Assembly: GCA_030837625.1 (NCBI GenBank)
Contig: JAUPKF010000002.1
Span: 168-64,167 of the forward strand
Direction: 5' to 3'
DNA from: Patescibacteria group bacterium
Lineage (GTDB): Bacteria > Patescibacteriota > Minisyncoccia > Moranbacterales > UBA2206
Length of the DNA stretch: 64,000 nucleotides
The notes under the pieces are model-generated. The model was not told the origin of the DNA. It did not search any database and worked only from the letters and a program-made list of their open reading frames with translations. Position 1 is the stretch's first letter. Every line of letters starts with the position of its first letter. The translations under genes were made by a program, and so were the position numbers. Shown here one piece after another: positions 134-29,491 of the stretch.

Positions 134-160
134 AAAAAGGCTTGATAAAGCCTTTTTTTG
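134..160. terminator. bidirectional rho-independent terminator hairpin (aaaaaaggcttgataaagccttttttt)
   Basis: perfect hairpin flanked by A-run and T-run, lies between tRNA genes. Confidence 0.6.
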
Positions 161-232
161 AGCGGGTAACGGGAATCGAACCCGTCTCTCGTCCTTGGCA
201 AGGACGTATAATAGCCACTATACGATACCCGC
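161..232 (-). tRNA. tRNA-Gly(GCC)
   Basis: hand-folded cloverleaf: acceptor gcgggta/tacccgc, anticodon loop ttGCCaa, T-loop ttcgatt. Confidence 0.85.
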
Positions 233-397
233 CTGCCGCATTTCCTTTTGATATTAAGTCCATAATACTCCATCAATAGATAATCCATAATCGGAGAGTA
301 ATAACTTTATATATCGTTAGGAAATGCCGCAGGCACGCCCATATCATTAGGAAATTTCGCGGGCGCGCCTGCTGCTTTTCATTTTTTAACTGTTTTT

Positions 398-473
<76 letters not shown>

Positions 474-477
474 GTGT

Positions 478-549
478 GGATCCTATAGGACTCGAACCTA
501 TGACATCTTCGATGTAAGCGAAGCGCTCTACCAACTGAGCTAAGGATCC
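478..549 (-). tRNA. tRNA-Val(TAC)
   Basis: acceptor ggatcct/aggatcc, anticodon stem cttcg/cgaag with loop ctTACat, T-loop ttcgagt. Confidence 0.8.
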
Positions 550-556
550 GAATATT

Positions 557-636
557 TAACGAATTGGGTAGACGAAGCGCTCTAGCCCCAGCCATAGGCT
601 GGTCAGCCTATGGCTGAAATTGAGCTAAGGATCCAA
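557..636 (-). pseudogene. truncated tRNA-Val-like 5' fragment with a 12-bp-stem hairpin inserted in the D-loop
   Basis: reverse complement reads ggatccttagctcaat[ttcagccataggctgaccagcctatggctg]gggctagagcgcttcg...; it shares the 5' acceptor/D and anticodon-stem 5' strand with the adjacent tRNA-Val(TAC) but lacks a 3' half. Confidence 0.5.
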
Positions 637-642
637 GAAGTG

Positions 643-727
643 TGCGAACGAGAGGACTTGAACCTCCATGGGATTGCTCCCACTACCACCTCAAGGTAGC
701 GCGTATACCAAGTTCCGCCACGTTCGC
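643..727 (-). tRNA. tRNA-Leu(GAG), class II with long variable arm
   Basis: acceptor gcgaacg/cgttcgc, anticodon loop ttGAGgt, variable arm tgggagcaatccca, T-loop ttcaagt. Confidence 0.85.
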
Positions 728-6750: not shown

Positions 6751-7388
6751 TATACGATTTCCAGACACACCTTCCCCAGAATCTCCACCGCTTTTTTGTT
6801 TTTTCTTAACTCTTCAACCGAAACCATAATCTCATTGAGGGCAAGTCTTGGTTGTTTATTTAAAAATATACGTATTGATCTATCATCCGGCTTCCCTTCC
6901 ACATACTTTGCCAAAATAGCATACCATAGATAAAAAGTTTCCTTTGTTACACCCACACCCGAATCAAAATAAGGCGGGTTATTGAAATAGCCGGTTATCT
7001 TTTCCCAGTTGTTATAATTCTCATAAACTATTTCGTCTTCCAGCATCTTTGCCGGATGATTATAAAGATCTGCCGCGTATTTCAAAGAATAAAAATCATA
7101 TTTATTCAAGATCTCTTCCCGCCGCATATCGCAAAAAAGATGAAACTTCCAGCCGGCTTCGAAAGAACTTAGCCCTTCAAAGTTTAAATCAAGCACAGGA
7201 AAACGCAAATGGGTATCTTTTCTTTTTATGTTGTCGTCAATGCGCCGGATATCCGGGAAAACGCATCCCAGCAAAAACTCGTCCCGATTCAAATTTTCGG
7301 GCGGAATATTATTATCGTCCGTTCCCATCTTATCCAACCGGTCGAAATATTTTTTCGCGTAAACAATGTGCGAAACTTGTGAAGCCAT
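6750..7388 (-). CDS. hypothetical protein (212 aa)
   Basis: intact ORF with coding-like composition; no motif recognised with confidence. Confidence 0.5.
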   Translation of the reverse strand: MASQVSHIVYAKKYFDRLDKMGTDDNNIPPENLNRDEFLLGCVFPDIRRIDDNIKRKDTHLRFPVLDLNFEGLSSFEAGWKFHLFCDMRREEILNKYDFYSLKYAADLYNHPAKMLEDEIVYENYNNWEKITGYFNNPPYFDSGVGVTKETFYLWYAILAKYVEGKPDDRSIRIFLNKQPRLALNEIMVSVEELRKNKKAVEILGKVCLEIV

Positions 7389-11142: not shown

Positions 11143-11215
11143 TGGACCCGAGGAGACTCGAACTCCTTACCTCCGCAATGCGAATGCGGCGCTCTACCAG
11201 ATGAGCTACGGGCCC
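11143..11215 (-). tRNA. tRNA-Ala(CGC)
   Basis: acceptor gggcccg with G3:U70 identity pair, anticodon stem ccgca/tgcgg with loop ttCGCat. Confidence 0.85.
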
Positions 11216-11324
11216 AGAACTAACGTGGACGATACTGGACTCCCCGCCTGCCGCGAAATCCCACATAGTCTCCTGTCAGTAAATTAGTTTTCTATCCTAA
11301 ATAATCAATAAGAATCTTTTTGGA

Positions 11325-11396
11325 GCGGCATTTCGGGCAGGGAACCAGTGACAGCCCGAATGTGAATCGAGCGCTCTAATTTATCCCCCCACCAAT
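11325..11396 (-). pseudogene. degenerate tRNA-Val(CAC)-like 3' portion (outer copy) adjacent to the intact tRNA-Val(CAC)
   Basis: reverse complement ggggggataaattagagcgctcgattcacattcgggctgtcactggttccctgcccga has an anticodon arm ctcga/ttCACat/tcggg but a degraded T-arm and acceptor; it parallels the intact outer copy at 28078-28150. Confidence 0.45.
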
Positions 11397-11400
11397 TGGG

Positions 11401-11474
<74 letters not shown>

Positions 11475-11534
11475 AATTGGTGGGGGGACGAGCTGAGCTA
11501 ATCGTCCAATAAATAGTACTGACACTTTTGATTG

Positions 11535-11607
11535 TGGACCCAAGGAGACTCGAACTCCTGACCCCTTCCATGCCATGGAAGTGCTCTACCAGCTGAGCTA
11601 TGGGCCC
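11535..11607 (-). tRNA. tRNA-Ala(GGC)
   Basis: acceptor gggccca with G3:U70, anticodon stem cttcc/ggaag with loop atGGCat. Confidence 0.85.
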
Positions 11608-11720: not shown

Positions 11721-12830
11721 TCAAACCAGTGTACAGGCCTGGTCATACTCTTTAAGCAAGGAAGAAATCAACTCTTTTACTGACACAATATTGTCCACCT
11801 TGTAGGCGTTGTTGCCGGCGAAGGCAAAACCGTGTTTCAGGTTTCCCTTCTTGGCGTTGATCAAGGCGAAGGCAATGCAATAAGGGCTTTGTTTATAGTC
11901 GCACGTCGAAATGCAGTGATGGGGGCACTTGAAAGGCTTCTTCTTCCCGCTTTTCACGGCATCGAGGAACTCATTGCGGATGGCCCTTCCTGGCAGTCCC
12001 ACCGGACTCTGGATAACCACTAGGTCATCCTCTTTGGCATCGATGTACGACTGCTTGAAACGCATATCCGCGTCGCACTCGTGGGTGGCAACGAAGCGGG
12101 TCGCCATTTGCACCCCCGCCACTCCGAGCTTCAGGAACCTGCAAACATCCGCTCCAGTGTATATCCCTCCCGCGGCGATGATCGGGATATCCGCCTTCCG
12201 CTCCCAAGCGAACGACTTCACCGCCTCCAGAACTTCAGGGACGAGCTTATCCAGGGCGAAGTCGGGATTGTCCAGTTGGTTGGGAGAAAAACCGAGATGC
12301 CCTCCCGCCATGGGTCCTTCCACCACGAAGGCATCCGGCAGACGCTCAAACCTCGACAGCCACTTTTTGCAAATCAGCTTGGCGGCTCTCCCGGAGGAGA
12401 CTATGGGAACCAACTTGGTATTGATTCCATCCTTGAGATATTTCGGCAAGTCGAGGGGCAGCCCGGCACCGGAGAAGATAACGTCGATCCCCTCCTCGAT
12501 GGACGCCTTGACCATATCGGCAAAGTTGGTGAGCGCAACCATCACGTTGACGCCCAGGATGCCATTGGTCTTTTTCCTGGCCTTGCGGATTTCCTCTTTG
12601 AGTGCCCGTATATTGGCGTTCCTGTAGTCCGAATAGAAGTCTGGCTCGTTCATTCCGATTATGGCGGTGGCGATGACGCCGATCGCTCCTTCATTGGCAA
12701 CGGCCGAGGCAAGTCCGGAAAGGGAAATGCCTACTCCCATTCCACCCTGAATAATTGGGAGTTTTGCGATCAAATCGCCGATTTTCAGTGCCGGCATTTT
12801 TATTTCCATTGAACTCCTCCTCTTTTTCAA
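11721..12830 (-). CDS. nitronate monooxygenase / FabK-like enoyl-ACP reductase II family (NMO, FMN-binding TIM barrel)
   Basis: IIQGGMGVGIS, GAIGVI, PIIAAGGI, GVAGVQMATRF motifs; locally higher GC than the flanks. Confidence 0.8.
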   Translation of the reverse strand: MKKRRSSMEIKMPALKIGDLIAKLPIIQGGMGVGISLSGLASAVANEGAIGVIATAIIGMNEPDFYSDYRNANIRALKEEIRKARKKTNGILGVNVMVALTNFADMVKASIEEGIDVIFSGAGLPLDLPKYLKDGINTKLVPIVSSGRAAKLICKKWLSRFERLPDAFVVEGPMAGGHLGFSPNQLDNPDFALDKLVPEVLEAVKSFAWERKADIPIIAAGGIYTGADVCRFLKLGVAGVQMATRFVATHECDADMRFKQSYIDAKEDDLVVIQSPVGLPGRAIRNEFLDAVKSGKKKPFKCPHHCISTCDYKQSPYCIAFALINAKKGNLKHGFAFAGNNAYKVDNIVSVKELISSLLKEYDQACTLV

Positions 12831-23200: not shown

Positions 23201-23779
23201 ATGGCTAATATCTTTATTATTTCCGGCCCGTCGGGAGTCGGAGAAGATTCCGTGATTGAGGGTCTTCGGAAATACTTTGAAATTGAAAGGGTCAAAACAA
23301 CCACAACCCGTTCAATGCGGCCAGGAGAATCAGACGGGAATCCCTACTACTTCATATCCAAAGACGAATTCCGAAAAAATATACAGGGGGAAAAAATGGC
23401 AGAGTACGCCGAAGAATACAACAGTAATCTTTACGGCGTAACCGTTTCAGAACTTGATCGAGTTGCAAGCTCTCGCAGGATTGGCATCTGGAAAATTGAA
23501 TACAAAGGAGTGATCACCGCCAAAAAAAAATTTCCAGAAATAAAATCCATATACATCGCGGCGCCATCTTTGGATATTCTTAAAAAAAGAATATTAAAAA
23601 GAGACCCCGGCGTAAGTGAAAAATATCTAGCTGAAAGGATGGAATATACGAAAGAATGGATGAAGCATGAGAACATTTATGATTATAAAGTTGTCAATGA
23701 AGAAGGAAAGCTAGACGAAACGATAAAAAAGGTGGCGGAAATTATAAAAAGTAATTTAAATGCAGAGAAACTTGATTAA
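23201..23779 (+). CDS. gmk: guanylate kinase
   Basis: P-loop IISGPSGVGEDS, NPYYFIS...EFR, GNLYG motifs. Confidence 0.85.
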   Translation: MANIFIISGPSGVGEDSVIEGLRKYFEIERVKTTTTRSMRPGESDGNPYYFISKDEFRKNIQGEKMAEYAEEYNSNLYGVTVSELDRVASSRRIGIWKIEYKGVITAKKKFPEIKSIYIAAPSLDILKKRILKRDPGVSEKYLAERMEYTKEWMKHENIYDYKVVNEEGKLDETIKKVAEIIKSNLNAEKLD

Positions 23780-24734
23780 AAAAGTTCAAAATACTATCTT
23801 CCAATATAGCTTGTTAAAAAGAGACGATAAGATCATAGTTGCGGTTTCCGGCGGGCCGGATTCGACCGCGATGCTGGATATCTTTTCCAAGCTGAAAAAA
23901 AAATATGATCTTGATTTGATTGTCGCGCATGTGAATTATAATCTCCGCGGAAACGACAGCAAAAAAGACGAGGCGTTTGCGAGAAAACTGGCGGAGAAAT
24001 ATAATTTGGAAATTTTCGTTTTGCGTCCGGTAGAGACGCAAAATTTTGCGTCTCTACCACAGCGCAAAAAACACCCTTCCGAAAATACGTTGCGCGACAT
24101 TCGTTACGCTTTTTTTGAAAAGATAAGATTGGAAAATAAATTTGACCATATCGCCGTCGCGCACAACGCCGACGACCAAGTGGAAACGTTTTTGTCGCGC
24201 GTCATCCGGGGAGCGGGACTTCTCGGCCTTTCCGCGATGCGGCATAAAAATAACAGCATTATCCGACCACTTCTTGATGTTCCGCGCTGCGAAATTCTAA
24301 AGTATCTGAAAGAAAACAAACTCACTTACCGCGTCGACAAAACTAATTTGGAATCGGAATTTTTGCGCAATAAAATCCGCAACAAACTTCTGCCGTATCT
24401 GGAAAAAAATTTCAACCCGGCCATCCGCCAAACTATTTTTGACGCCACCGTTTCCATTTCAGAAGATTATTCCTTGGTTTCAAATTTGATCGAAAAAAAA
24501 TACAAGAAGCTGAACGAGCTCGACGTAAAAAATATAGAAAAACTGCATCCGGCCGTCCAAAAAGGCATCGTCAGAAAAATGCTGAAAGAAAAAAAAGGCA
24601 ACCTTCAAAACATTGGCGCGGCCAACATCGAAGAAATTCTAAAAATCATAAAAAGCACGAAAAACAAAGCCCAAACTGTAGTATTTAAAGGATTGAAAAT
24701 TACCCGCAAAGGTGATAAAATCAAAATAGAATAG
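23760..24734 (+). CDS. tilS: tRNA(Ile)-lysidine synthetase
   Basis: PP-loop VAVSGGPDSTAML; located upstream of ftsH (conserved synteny). Confidence 0.85.
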   Translation: MQRNLIKKVQNTIFQYSLLKRDDKIIVAVSGGPDSTAMLDIFSKLKKKYDLDLIVAHVNYNLRGNDSKKDEAFARKLAEKYNLEIFVLRPVETQNFASLPQRKKHPSENTLRDIRYAFFEKIRLENKFDHIAVAHNADDQVETFLSRVIRGAGLLGLSAMRHKNNSIIRPLLDVPRCEILKYLKENKLTYRVDKTNLESEFLRNKIRNKLLPYLEKNFNPAIRQTIFDATVSISEDYSLVSNLIEKKYKKLNELDVKNIEKLHPAVQKGIVRKMLKEKKGNLQNIGAANIEEILKIIKSTKNKAQTVVFKGLKITRKGDKIKIE

Positions 24735-26886: not shown

Positions 26887-27873
26887 ATGCGTAAAGTAAA
26901 TTACATCGGCGCAGTAAAAGATGCCTGGAATATAACCTGGCGCAACCGCTATCTTTGGTGGCTGGGCTTTCTGGCGTCTCTTTGCGGTTTTGGCGGAATG
27001 AATTATATCTCTAATAACGGCCAGCTGGAAAATAACGAATTTGAAAAACAAGCGTTGGATTTCATTTCCCAAAGTTACCAGTGGTTTTTATGGTTGGGCA
27101 TATTCCTCGTTTTGATATTCATCCTGCTATTGGTCGCGTCCACCATCGGTCGAGCGGGACTCATCGCCTCAATCAACTCGGAAATAAAGGGAGAAAAGAA
27201 AACTTTCAAGGAGGGTTGGCGGGAGGGTAAAAAGTATTTTTGGAAGTTTTTGCTTTTGGGTTTTTTTCTGATATTATCCATTTTGGCAATAATCATTATT
27301 TTAGCCACTCCAATCGCCGTCCTTTTCGCCAGCCACGCTTATTTCACCGGCGCGTTTCTTTCGATGTTTGCCGTCCTTATCATAATTCCAATCATTTTTC
27401 TTCTGGTGTTTCTCAAAATATACGGGCAAATTTACATAGCCGTGGGAAAACTTTCCGTCCGCGCGGCTGTGGAAAACGCCTGCCGCCTTTTCCAAAAAAA
27501 TCTCTGGGAAAGCGTTGTGATGAGTTTGTTCTTTATCCCGCTGGGAATCGTCTGGTTTTTCTCCGTCATCACGCTCCTCATTCCATTCTTAATTGTTTTC
27601 GGCGCTTCGGCTTTCGTTATCTATTTATTGGCCGGAAAAATCGGCGCCATTGCCATCGCTTCCATCGGGTTTATACTGTTTTTAGCCGGCGTCCTTTTCC
27701 TGCGTTCAGTCTATGAAACTTTCGCCCAATCTATCTGGATTTTCTTCTTCCGCGAGATCGCTTCTCCAAAAGAAGAAGAAAAAGTAACTGAACCTGAAAC
27801 CGAAAAAGAAACATCCCCGCTCGCCGCGCCAACTCCCGCCGCACCGATCAAGACAGCAGGAATAGAAAAATAG
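26887..27873 (+). CDS. hypothetical polytopic membrane protein (328 aa)
   Basis: 6-7 predicted TMs; C-terminal EEEK/Pro-Ala tail. Confidence 0.55.
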   Translation: MRKVNYIGAVKDAWNITWRNRYLWWLGFLASLCGFGGMNYISNNGQLENNEFEKQALDFISQSYQWFLWLGIFLVLIFILLLVASTIGRAGLIASINSEIKGEKKTFKEGWREGKKYFWKFLLLGFFLILSILAIIIILATPIAVLFASHAYFTGAFLSMFAVLIIIPIIFLLVFLKIYGQIYIAVGKLSVRAAVENACRLFQKNLWESVVMSLFFIPLGIVWFFSVITLLIPFLIVFGASAFVIYLLAGKIGAIAIASIGFILFLAGVLFLRSVYETFAQSIWIFFFREIASPKEEEKVTEPETEKETSPLAAPTPAAPIKTAGIEK

Positions 27874-27952
27874 TTACCGTGAAAAATTAAATCCGCTCCT
27901 TTTGAGCGGTTTTATTGACTCGAGAGATGTTTTGAAATAGTATGGATATTAG

Positions 27953-27988
27953 CAGGGGTCTGTAGCTCAGCTCGTCCCCCCACCAATT
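27953..27988 (+). pseudogene. 5' part of an outer tRNA-Val(GAC)-like gene (acceptor + D-stem 5' strand) interrupted in its D-loop
   Basis: gggtctgtagctcagct then cgtccccccaccaattgg leads into the inner tRNA; together with 28078-28150 it folds as a tRNA with a 6/7-paired acceptor. Confidence 0.45.
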
Positions 27989-28062
27989 GGGTGTTTAGCT
28001 CAGCTGGTTAGAGCGCCACATTGACATTGTGGAGGTCACTGGTTCGAGTCCAGTAATACCCA
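27989..28062 (+). tRNA. tRNA-Val(GAC), nested inside the D-loop of an outer tRNA-Val-like gene
   Basis: acceptor gggtgtt/aataccc, anticodon stem ccaca/tgtgg with loop ttGACat, T-loop ttcgagt; flanked by the 18-bp perfect inverted repeat ccccccaccaattgggtg / cacccaattggtgggggg. Confidence 0.85.
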
Positions 28063-28077
28063 CCCAATTGGTGGGGG

Positions 28078-28150
28078 GATAAATCAGAGCGCTACATTGA
28101 CATTGTAGAGGTTTCAGAGGTTCGAGTCCTCTCACGCCCACAGGAAGTTT
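28078..28150 (+). pseudogene. 3' part of the outer tRNA-Val(GAC)-like gene (D-stem 3' strand, anticodon arm, T-arm, acceptor 3' strand)
   Basis: ataaatcagagcgc tacattgacattgta(anticodon GAC) gaggtttc agaggttcgagtcctct cacgccc a. Confidence 0.5.
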
Positions 28151-28165
28151 TTTAAAAAAATGATT

Positions 28166-28458
28166 GGGACCATAGCTCAGCGGTAGAGCAGGCGGCTCAA
28201 AAAATATTTAGGGCTGTTTGAGAAGTAATTTTCAAGCGAATATCTGTCAAACTCGGGGAAACCTAAGGCGCCAAAAGCGCTACGGCAATCCCGAGCCAAG
28301 CCCCGACGCGTGTCGTGGAAGGTGTAGAGACTAGACGGCAGACATCCCGATATCATCGGGATGAAGGGATAGTCCAGCTCCCAAACTCGAGAGGGGTTGC
28401 GAAAGCAATAGTGAGAAGCATAACCGCTTGGTCGCTGGTTCGAATCCAGCTGGTCCCA
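28166..28458 (+). tRNA. tRNA-Met(CAT) (elongator-type or tRNA-Ile2 precursor) interrupted by a group I intron; exons 28166-28197 and 28419-28458
   Basis: exon1 gggaccatagctcagcggtagagcaggcggct + exon2 cataaccgcttggtcgctggttcgaatccagctggtccca folds into a canonical cloverleaf with anticodon CAT; G1:C72, so it is not an initiator. Confidence 0.8.
28198..28418 (+). other. group I intron (221 nt) in the anticodon loop of tRNA-Met(CAT), inserted after U33
   Basis: 5' exon ends in U and the intron ends in G; conserved group I core elements R (gtgtagagactagacgg) and S (gaagggatagtccag) pair gacta/tagtc to form P7. Confidence 0.75.
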
Positions 28459-28501
28459 CAGATAAAAAACTCGACTTTTTAAAAAGCCGAGTTTTTTAAA
28501 T

Positions 28502-29491
28502 TTATTTTTTTCTTCTCCTTCCGTGAAACGCTTGATGGACTTCTTTGAGCTGCTTGTTGGTAACGTGGGTGTAAATTTGGGTGGTGGTGATGGAAGAATG
28601 GCCGAGCATAGCTTGCACCGAGCGGATGTCGGCGCCATTAATCAGTAAATCCGTAGCAAAAGAATGGCGAAGCGTGTGCGGATGGACATCTTTGACAATT
28701 CCGGCTTTGGCGGCGTAATATTTGACGATTCTCTGGACGGAGCGGGGGGTTAATCTTAAACCAGCGTTATTATCCGTAGGGGTTCGATTAATCGAACCCC
28801 TACTTTTATTTTCGAATTTTGCCAGTCCTTTAACATCTCTCACAAACAAAGCCGGATCAATATCCATCCGCTTATCCAGATACGTCTCCAGCGCTTTCTT
28901 GGCACTTTCTGAAATAAAAACCACCCGAATTTTGTCGCCTTTTCCTCGCACGGAGAGTTCCCCGGATCCCAAATTCAACTTATCCCGATTGATGCTGACG
29001 AGTTCCGATACTCGCATTCCGGCCGAAAAAAGCATCTCCAGCATCGCTCGGTCGCGAAGCGACTTAAAATCAATTCCAGACGCCGCCCCGATAATCCTTT
29101 CCACTTCTTCCGGTTCCAAAAATTCAATTTCGCGCGCCGGAGATTTCCCAATCTCGACCTTTTCCGCGATCAATGTCTTAATGTCCCGCTTTGCCAGATA
29201 TTTAAGAAAGCTTCGAAGGGCTATAACGTAATAGCCCTGGGTAGCTTTTTTCAAGCCTTTTCCATTCTCATCTTTGTAGCGGCTCAGATGCAAGCGAAAG
29301 TTTCTTACCAATTCATCTGTAATTTCGGACGGCTTCGCTATTTTTGCCCAATCAAAAAACACCCGCAAATATCGACTATAATTTTCAATAGTCTTTTGCG
29401 AACGGTTCTTTTCTATTTCAAGATATTCCAGAAACTGAGTTTTTAGTCGCTCAATTCCACTTTTTTGTATCTTTTCTGTTTCATGTTTCAT
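28502..29491 (-). CDS. xerC: tyrosine site-specific recombinase (XerC/XerD-like integrase)
   Basis: catalytic region HTLRHSFATDLLINGADIRSVQAMLGHSSITTTQIYTHV; N-terminal SAM-like core-binding domain; 3' end lies 44 bp from the tRNA-Met 3' end. Confidence 0.85.
   Translation of the reverse strand: MKHETEKIQKSGIERLKTQFLEYLEIEKNRSQKTIENYSRYLRVFFDWAKIAKPSEITDELVRNFRLHLSRYKDENGKGLKKATQGYYVIALRSFLKYLAKRDIKTLIAEKVEIGKSPAREIEFLEPEEVERIIGAASGIDFKSLRDRAMLEMLFSAGMRVSELVSINRDKLNLGSGELSVRGKGDKIRVVFISESAKKALETYLDKRMDIDPALFVRDVKGLAKFENKSRGSINRTPTDNNAGLRLTPRSVQRIVKYYAAKAGIVKDVHPHTLRHSFATDLLINGADIRSVQAMLGHSSITTTQIYTHVTNKQLKEVHQAFHGRRRKK

Follow-up and report, generated by a model that had tools for sequence, protein, structure and literature searches.

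A compact group I intron after U33 of a CAU-anticodon tRNA gene, called here as tRNA-Ile2, in a Patescibacteria contig

The stretch of Patescibacteria DNA analysed in this work (64,000 nucleotides of contig JAUPKF010000002.1, positions 168 to 64,167 of the forward strand; hereafter the window) contains a group I intron in a tRNA gene with a CAU anticodon, inserted directly after U33. The split gene occupies 28166-28458 on the forward strand and was delimited by a match to the Rfam model RF00028 (Intron_gpI) together with an in-silico splice. On the evidence set out below, it is very probably a tRNA-Ile2 gene that is interrupted at U33|C34 by a compact group I ribozyme of the IC3 type, which contains no open reading frame (ORF). 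The RF00028 search, which an earlier note on this DNA had proposed as a check, returned a single match in the 64 kb, at 28188-28394, which spans model positions 1-253 of 253 and scores 71.3 bits (gathering threshold 50; E value 4e-16), well above what chance would give.

Gene layout and identity of the host tRNA

Exon 1 (28166-28197, +; GGGACCAUAGCUCAGCGGUAGAGCAGGCGGCU) is 32 nt long and covers tRNA positions 1-33, namely the 5′ strand of the acceptor stem, the D arm, the 5′ strand of the anticodon stem, C32 and U33, with its 3′ end reading ...GGCGGCU, where the last U is position 33. The IC3-like intron (28198-28418, +) is 221 nt in length, begins with C and ends with G, and carries neither an ORF nor a P1 extension. 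Exon 2 (28419-28458, +; CAUAACCGCUUGGUCGCUGGUUCGAAUCCAGCUGGUCCCA) contributes 40 nt from C34 to A73, running CAUAACCGCU...CCCA, and comprises the anticodon CAU, the 3′ strand of the anticodon stem, a variable loop of UGGUC, the T arm, the 3′ strand of the acceptor stem and the discriminator A, with the CCA end not encoded. Joining the exons at U33|C34 gives a 72-nt canonical cloverleaf with anticodon CAU, as folded by ARAGORN from the spliced sequence, with the predicted junction ...GCAGGCGGCU|CAUAACCGCUUGG..., and G28418 followed by C34 is the only junction that yields a 7-nt anticodon loop. The earlier note had described two exons that form a canonical tRNA with anticodon CAT around a 221-nt intervening sequence, which starts after U33 and ends in G, and each of these features was recovered here.

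Without its intron option, ARAGORN called no tRNA at 28166-28458. With introns allowed, the program reported a tRNA-Leu(CAA) with a 221-nt intron at 36/37, which is the wrong register and is ruled out by the short variable arm, by a 5′ junction that would follow an A and by an intron that would end in U. Only the register U33|...G|C34 combines a U at position -1 and a terminal guanosine (omega-G) with the wobble pair of P1, and the Leu(CAA) register was discarded. A tRNA finder that misses or misnames such a gene makes the genome seem devoid of an AUA decoder, and this affects the completeness scoring of Patescibacteria metagenome-assembled genomes (MAGs). Within the 64 kb, no further CAU tRNA and no second group I intron were detected with ARAGORN and Rfam. 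No intron-encoded homing endonuclease was found in the intron, whose L1 measures only 8 nt. The sole ORF that overlaps it, at 28177-28638 on the minus strand, has no Pfam match and extends into the neighbouring Xer recombinase gene, and was rejected as an intron protein.

Related introns were collected by a pattern scan, GTGTAGAGACT-N70-100-GCATAAYCNNNTGGT, over one genome per GTDB species, which returned at least 120 loci. An Ile2-type tRNA with an intron at 33/34 was reconstructed in 112 sequences (111 loci and the window) among the matches listed. The alignment used below, A1, holds 92 sequences, 13 of which had long P1 inserts trimmed.

The CAU anticodon is common to tRNA-Met and tRNA-Ile2, and the earlier note had named the gene tRNA-Met/Ile2; its reading of the anticodon stands, and the ambiguity is settled here in favour of Ile2 rather than Met. 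When the spliced sequence was compared by BLAST with 5426 E. coli genomes, tRNA-Ile genes ranked first, the matched gene having a CAT anticodon. The identity to the ileX-type tRNA-Ile(CAU) of E. coli amounts to 84.7% (61/72), against 74.3% to the elongator metT and 71.6% to the initiator metZ, with the anticodon arm, variable loop and T stem almost identical to those of ileX. The gene has a G1-C72 pair, and an initiator tRNA is therefore ruled out; in addition, its anticodon stem is not GGG/CCC. A G27·U43 wobble is present in the window tRNA and in 84 of the 92 family members of A1. The window also encodes the tRNA-Ile lysidine synthetase TilS at 23760-24734 (+), which scores 184.6 bits against TIGR02432 (cut-off 93.6), matches the Pfam PP-loop family and is named tRNA(Ile)-lysidine synthase by NCBI. 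It lies 3.5 kb upstream of the tRNA, as a functional partner that is physically separate from the element, and in six genes of the neighbourhood, 45 of 2812 codons are AUA. The determinants of E. coli TilS are said, from work by Ikeuchi et al. in 2005, to be G27·U43, C4-G69 and C5-G68. The window tRNA has G27·U43 and C5-G68, while its 4-69 pair is A-U; such determinants vary between TilS types.

It is unlikely that the host gene is instead an elongator tRNA-Met, with the same intron and a spliced product that reads AUG. Besides the shared anticodon and the A-U at 4-69 in place of the C-G that E. coli TilS reportedly uses, this reading can draw on the name tRNA-Met(cat) that ARAGORN gives to the spliced product, but every CAT anticodon receives the name Met from that program. 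The higher identity to tRNA-Ile(CAU) than to metT (84.7% against 74.3%), the near-identity to the former in the T stem, variable loop and anticodon arm, and the widely kept G27·U43 all speak for Ile2. Likewise, tFind labelled the homologous Desulforudis gene Met in the rows concerned of Table S5 of PMC13011429, whereas the BLAST-based assignment of the homologous genes in those rows is Ile2. We call the host gene a tRNA-Ile2, which would serve as a lysidine-modified AUA decoder, with some residual doubt that comes from A4-U69.

Ribozyme fold and predicted splicing

The P1-P9 model of the intron was drawn from the Rfam alignment and by hand, and covariation was counted on the MAFFT alignment A1, with a control in which the 3′ partners were slid by 1-3 columns. 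The model pairs 88.9% of cells in A1 (n = 92), against 35-46% in the slid controls, changes on both sides were observed in 47 of its 69 pairs, and its covariation score is 0.425, compared with 0.09 or less in the controls. Of the 64 nested pairs in the model, 56 also appear when the precursor is folded by ViennaRNA without constraints. J6/7, the 5′ strand of P7 and the GCAUAA junction belonged to the search pattern, so that their invariance is partly by construction.

All helices lie on the forward strand. P1, taken from the Rfam alignment, pairs 28192-28200 with the internal guide at 28209-28217, and within it the wobble between U33 (28197) and G28212, which marks the 5′ splice site, is U·G in 92 of 92 sequences, with the adjoining pair covarying between AU (63) and GC (29). 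P2 (28218-28224/28229-28235) is a 7-bp hairpin closed by a GUAA loop of the GNRA type at 28225-28228; compensatory changes were found in all four of its outer pairs, and 21 relatives have the same L2 GUAA. P3 (28243-28248/28337-28342) encloses P4, P5-P5a and P6-P6a and is 98.4% paired in A1, with compensatory changes in 6 of 6 pairs, and P4 (28252-28258/28289-28295) is 98.6% paired, also with compensatory changes. P5-P5a (28262-28271/28277-28285) contains a CCUAAG/UACGG motif that resembles a tetraloop receptor, P6-P6a occupies 28296-28322, and both P5 and P6 covary in A1.

The guanosine-binding helix P7 (28329-28333/28370-28374) forms a pseudoknot with P3 and encloses P8 and J8/7. The earlier note had recognised R and S elements able to form this helix, and the alignment bears this out: the R element (28322-28338) holds the 5′ strand GACUA, the S element (28364-28378) holds the 3′ strand UAGUC, and P7 is 100% paired in 92 of 92 related introns, with four pairs invariant and one covarying. 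P8 (28343-28351/28355-28363) is 87.7% paired and every pair shows compensatory changes. The three-way domain at 28378-28418 has P9 (28378-28382/28411-28415) as its base and bears P9a (28386-28388/28393-28395, GAGA loop) and P9b (28396-28400/28405-28409, GAAA loop), each of the three covarying, with GAAA in L9b of 89 of the 92 sequences. The window intron thus carries the consensus junctions J3/4 AAA, which is found in all 92 aligned introns, and J8/7 AAGGGA, as well as the consensus L9b GAAA. The omega-G is 28418, and an intron-terminal G is present in 112 of 112 sequences among the matches listed, partly by design of the pattern.

Introns of subgroup IC3 are marked by a single P2, by the lack of P5abc and by a GAAA-looped P9 together with a matching P5 receptor. 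The hand-drawn model of the window intron has this compact, IC3-like build, with a single P2, no P5abc, L9b GAAA and the CCUAAG/UACGG motif in P5.

The two-step chemistry of group I splicing is established (PMC3984707, PMC13168695), and in the window it would proceed as follows. The tRNA-Ile2 would probably be co-transcribed with an upstream tRNA-Val(GAC) from a promoter at 27915-27943, and the end of exon 1 (G30, G31, C32 and U33, extendable to position 28) would pair with the guide GGGCUGU to form P1, in which U33·G28212 would mark the 5′ splice site. The first attack, after U33, would come from an exogenous guanosine that occupies the P7 pocket, G28418 would then enter the same pocket, and the 3′-OH of U33 would attack the G28418|C34 bond, with exon ligation restoring the loop CU-CAU-AA. 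As in other tRNA introns, the exons are probably aligned by the anticodon stem and not by a true P10. The ends of the tRNA would be completed by RNase P, by trimming at the 3′ side and by addition of CCA, and TilS would convert C34 to lysidine for AUA reading. As exon 2 begins with C34, this modification probably has to await splicing, and the order of the maturation steps is directly testable, given that both splicing and lysidine formation act at that nucleotide.

The intron is probably functional and probably spliced in vivo. Across the 92 split genes, 99.6% of the cells in the cloverleaf of the spliced exons are paired, and compensatory changes are frequent; these genes are therefore under selection, and this in turn presupposes, indirectly, that the introns of the family splice. 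That the window intron is catalytically dead and the locus a disrupted pseudogene, with AUA decoded by another tRNA gene, is very unlikely. Of the features that most relatives keep, the P1 extension and the P9a GAAA loop have been lost from the window copy, a few mismatches lie in peripheral helices, and the analysis covered 64 kb of the genome, with splicing predicted from the sequence; yet every core helix and junction fits the family consensus and the exons form a perfect cloverleaf. Moreover, four other independent lineages without the P1 extension keep intact exons, two relatives (loci L010 and L059) hold an intron-bearing Ile2 at the same locus, which indicates that this is the standard copy of the lineage, and the 64 kb, in which neither another CAU tRNA nor another group I intron was seen, retain TilS.

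Some observations weigh against a functional tRNA-Ile2 intron of the IC3 type. In addition to A4-U69 in the host tRNA, P10 could consist of one pair at most (C34-G28211), and small blemishes are seen in the C×U mismatch of P9 (28381/28412), the A×A opposition in the extension of P1 (28199/28210) and the bulged U28316 of P6a. The window intron lacks the P1 extension that 87 of the 92 aligned introns have. The IC3 label comes from alignment to introns labelled IC3 in the literature, and a second, intron-less tRNA-Ile2 gene may lie beyond the 64-kb window. It is improbable that the split gene is the sole tRNA-Ile2 gene and that all AUA decoding is gated by guanosine- and Mg2+-dependent self-splicing, with the intron being a regulatory valve and not the neutral remnant of a parasite; if this were true, a self-splicing step would control AUA decoding in a reduced-genome bacterium.

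Relation to catalogued introns and history of this copy

Group I introns of bacterial tRNA genes are already well catalogued. A preprint of 2020 mapped 5292 of them (10.1101/2020.01.27.920355), with the classical classes located in Leu at 34/35, Arg at 36/37, fMet at 33/34 and, in Azoarcus, Ile2 at 36/37, and Nakagawa et al. (mSystems 2026; PMC13011429) listed 333 tRNA introns in 4934 complete genomes from 18 phyla. With the at least 120 loci found here added, the statement of the earlier note that such introns are known in a few lineages proves too narrow; as the class is already widespread, one more occurrence carries little phylogenetic information, where the note had called each occurrence phylogenetically informative. 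Group I introns occur in about 40% of Patescibacteria genomes, and the occurrence itself is therefore ordinary. Nothing in the intron finding would surprise a specialist, the intron class having been catalogued in many bacterial phyla.

Judged by its alignment, the window intron belongs to the known class of Ile2 introns at 33/34 of subgroup IC3, which tFind names Ile2.2Ug and for which rows of Table S5 of PMC13011429 list Ile2(CAT) members from Acidobacteriota and Bacillota_B (Desulforudis). In these rows and in the window, the host tRNA, the insertion site U33|C34, the U at -1 and the terminal G are the same, and P1-P9 aligns column for column; the scan recovered the row GCA_016700175.1 with identical coordinates (L091), as well as a relative of Desulforudis (L065). 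These introns are 62-74% identical to the window intron, but differ from it in host phylum, in the GAAA of L9a, which is GAGA in the window, and in length: the rows of Table S5 have 243-252 nt, while the window copy, which has no P1 extension, has 221 nt. Among the tRNA introns of the 95 complete Patescibacteria genomes covered by PMC13011429, none was of type IC. That statement is qualified by the roughly 20 further Patescibacteria contigs recovered in our scan among the matches listed; together with the window, these MAG contigs point to a modest extension of the Ile2 33/34 class into Patescibacteria.

The tRNA-Ile2 intron of Azoarcus resides in the same tRNA species and resembles the window intron in its compact IC3-style build, its GNRA loop in L2, its GAAA loop in L9 and its CCUAAG-type P5 receptor. 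The likeness to the Azoarcus type includes the GUAGAGACUAGACGGCA core. The Azoarcus intron is self-splicing and ORF-less (PMC13168695), but it is inserted at 36/37, where the 5′ exon ends in CAU (class Ile2.5Ug; 10.1101/2020.01.27.920355), whereas the window intron lies at 33/34; its guide therefore pairs with bases of the anticodon stem and loop and not, as in Azoarcus, with the anticodon. Membership in class Ile2.5Ug is excluded by this difference in insertion site. The cyanobacterial tRNA-fMet(CAU) intron (fMet.2Ug) shares the 33/34 site, the anticodon and the subgroup with the window intron. However, it is hosted by an initiator tRNA with C1×A72 and three G-C pairs in the anticodon stem, as opposed to G1-C72 and an Ile2-type body in the window, and some of its copies carry a PD-(D/E)XK endonuclease, in contrast to the antisense HNH-like ORF of the window's relatives.

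The tRNA introns that PMC13011429 reports from Patescibacteria reside in Asn and Asp at 35/36 (IA, some with an HNH gene) and, in Microgenomatia, in Met(CAU) at 33/34. They share with the window intron the phylum, an anticodon-loop site and the misreading by ARAGORN, with the Microgenomatia Met intron likewise miscalled as Leu(CAA) at 36/37 (Table 1 of that paper), and the HNH ORF of the Asn introns shares the motif CGY...FHH...CxNCH with the ORF found in relatives of the window intron. However, the Microgenomatia genes start with UGCGGGG, as against GGGACCA in the window, and the intron sequence differs. Moreover, in contrast to the window intron, which can be aligned with IC3-labelled introns, none of the Patescibacteria introns of PMC13011429 is assigned to IC.

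Among the matches listed, the hosts of the 33/34 introns are Betaproteobacteria, Acidobacteriota (mostly Pyrinomonadaceae), Chloroflexota, Bacillota, Planctomycetota, Verrucomicrobia and Patescibacteria, the last with about 20 contigs from Moranbacteria, Saccharibacteria, Gracilibacteria and unnamed lineages (for example L003, L010, L014, L018, L020, L032, L038, L042, L050, L059, L064, L066, L074, L083, L089, L092, L094, L102, L111 and L115). The closest intron among these matches is that of L010 (Candidatus Moraniibacteriota), which is 78.5% identical across 219 positions and lies between exons of 90% identity, while the identity of the window intron to catalogued class members ranges from 62 to 78% over 200-220 aligned intron positions. 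The introns among the matches listed have a median length of 256 nt. Only 3 of the 112 introns are shorter than the 221 nt of the window copy, and 32 of 112 exceed 380 nt, with 28 of these measuring 595-651 nt.

These 28 long introns were searched for ORFs, and 21 contain an apparently intact, Cys-rich ORF of 108-135 aa, which lies on the strand opposite to the tRNA, inside the extension of the P1 hairpin, and carries the motif CxxC...CGY...FHH...N...CxNCH; in the remaining seven, the ORF appears degraded, or the sequence was too short or divergent to align. The L010 intron, 623 nt in length, holds one of these ORFs in its extended P1 loop (6869-7243 of that locus, minus strand), with equivalents in L014, L008, L064, L055, L083 and other loci, and the hosts include Patescibacteria, Acidobacteriota and Chloroflexota. 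A Pfam search with the L010 ORF found no significant family, and a profile of the 21 ORFs gave marginal matches among PDB sequences, to the HNH/En domain of LtrA (E value 0.15) and to a nicking endonuclease (E value 0.37). The ORF probably encodes a homing endonuclease of the HNH type, in an antisense orientation that is unusual; the label is given because of its motif and its likeness, in CGY...FHH...CxNCH, to the ORF named HNH in Patescibacteria tRNA-Asn introns (PMC13011429).

The window intron appears to descend from a mobile form that had an antisense HNH-like ORF in P1, with both the ORF and the extension since deleted. The 221-nt intron is a naturally minimised member of its class and, beside relatives with an endonuclease-like gene, an example of intron 'domestication'. 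IC3-type introns may be common in Patescibacteria and may have entered with the antisense HNH endonuclease, which the window copy would since have shed. The P1 extension is absent in 5 of the 92 aligned introns, namely those of the window, L052, L068, L077 and L100, all from different phyla. None of these five has GAAA in L9a, compared with 71 of the 87 introns with the extension, and many P1 extensions hold a receptor-like CUAA...AUGG motif, which suggests a tertiary contact between L9a and the P1 extension, the two sides of which became dispensable together and are lost as a unit.

Genomic neighbourhood of the split gene

The sole promoter-like site found in 27800-28560 is a sigma-70-like TTGACT-17 nt-TAGTAT at 27915-27943 (+), which probably drives a unit of tRNA-Val(GAC) and tRNA-Ile2. 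The tRNA-Val(GAC)-tRNA-Ile2 pair of L010 is likewise preceded by this TTGAC..TTTTGAAATAGTAT block, and that of L059, another Patescibacteria locus, by the closely similar TTGAC..TTTTGAAATAAGAT, with the -10 hexamer TAAGAT. The tRNA-Val(GAC) at 27989-28062 (+) was found by Rfam (tRNA model, 70.6 bits) and by ARAGORN and lies upstream of the split gene. Downstream, an A/U-flanked hairpin was read by eye at 28464-28497, between the convergent tRNA and Xer genes; a terminator scan did not call this hairpin, which could possibly be a weak candidate for a bidirectional terminator.

The earlier note had drawn attention to a Xer-type integrase gene beside the tRNA. The adjacency is real, with the tRNA ending at 28458, the Xer ORF (stop codon included) ending at 28502 and a gap of 43 nt between them; as a sign of an integrated element, it gives way to conserved chromosomal synteny. 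It is most improbable that the tRNA is the attachment site of a mobile element with a Xer-type integrase and that the intron arrived with this element. Such a reading could appeal to the 43-nt spacing of a tyrosine recombinase gene from the 3′ end of the tRNA, to the status of tRNA genes as classic integration sites, and to the promoter-Val-Ile2 block, which is inverted relative to Xer in the window in comparison with L010 and L059. However, the recombinase scores as XerC/XerD/XerA-like and is named XerD by NCBI (the proteins of the window are MDQ1283783-86), and the genes around it are syntenic in two relatives: L010 shares with the window UvrD, LysM-CHAP, Xer (71% protein identity), tRNA-Val(GAC) and tRNA-Ile2, and L059 shares LysM-CHAP, Xer (68%) and the two tRNAs. 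Furthermore, no second copy of the tRNA 3′ end, such as an att-like repeat would give, was found in the window with up to three mismatches allowed, and no anomaly of composition or GC content was seen at the locus. The conserved synteny and the lack of an att repeat and of a GC anomaly thus indicate that the adjacency to Xer is ancestral and does not mark an island.

The same intron is also found in other relatives, within a different tRNA cluster that has no integrase. In L014, L083, L102, L008 and L031, the intron-bearing Ile2 lies between tRNA-Phe and tRNA-Gly of a tRNA cluster, which in most of these relatives also has Leu(GAG) and Val(UAC) upstream. The window has the same cluster at 160-727 (-), with a 165-nt spacer between Phe and Gly and no Ile2. 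The Ile2 gene, or the whole promoter-Val-Ile2 block, appears to have moved or been inverted within the lineage. As a separate observation, L008 and L031 are labelled 'uncultured Bdellovibrionales', and their Ile2 exons, intron and tRNA cluster closely match those of the Moraniibacteriota loci L083 and L102; the label may reflect mis-binning.

The most unusual feature of the neighbourhood is not the intron but a nested arrangement of tRNA-Val sequences, which shares its presumed transcript with the intron-bearing tRNA-Ile2. An outer tRNA-Val(GAC)-like gene at 27956-28140 (+) surrounds the inner tRNA-Val, with its D loop interrupted after ..UAGCUCAGCU. The D-loop insert, of about 113 nt, consists of CGU, CCCCCCACCAAUU, the complete tRNA-Val(GAC) at 27989-28062, CCC, AAUUGGUGGGGGG and AUAAAU, and the inner tRNA is flanked by a perfect 19-nt inverted repeat (27975-27993/28061-28079). 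Beyond the insert, the outer gene continues with the 3′ strand of the D stem, a Val(GAC) anticodon arm, the T arm and the acceptor strand, with one C×C mismatch in the acceptor stem and a 7-nt variable loop. In L010 and L059, an inner-like Val(GAC) occupies the same promoter-proximal spot, with neither repeats nor outer pieces.

A second nested copy was found at approximately 11225-11505 (-), where an outer tRNA-Val(CAC) surrounds an inner tRNA-Val(CAC) at 11401-11474. This outer gene has a perfect acceptor stem (GGACGAU/AUCGUCC) and perfect D, anticodon and T stems; its D loop is broken by an identical repeat-flanked cassette, and a second insert of about 103 nt lies in its T loop, between UUC and GAGU. 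For the T-loop insert, a permissive Rfam search of 11180-11560 gave no credible match. Outside the anticodon arm, the two inner tRNAs and the sequences beside them are nearly identical, and the anticodon of each inner tRNA agrees with that of the outer gene around it. When metagenomes were scanned for the flanking inverted repeat, nine matches were obtained, none of which (0/9) had a tRNA between the arms. The arrangement may be a tRNA-carrying cassette that inserts itself into cognate tRNA genes, a tRNA made in two pieces, or a set of decaying pseudogenes.

Apart from the tRNA genes, a nitronate-monooxygenase-like gene at 11721-12830 (-) encodes a protein that is 70-90% identical to proteins of Deltaproteobacteria and Syntrophobacteraceae in unrelated contexts. 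Orthologous tRNA clusters were not reached through this gene, its close homologues lying in such contexts. The identity is unusually high for Patescibacteria, and the gene may have been acquired by recent horizontal transfer.

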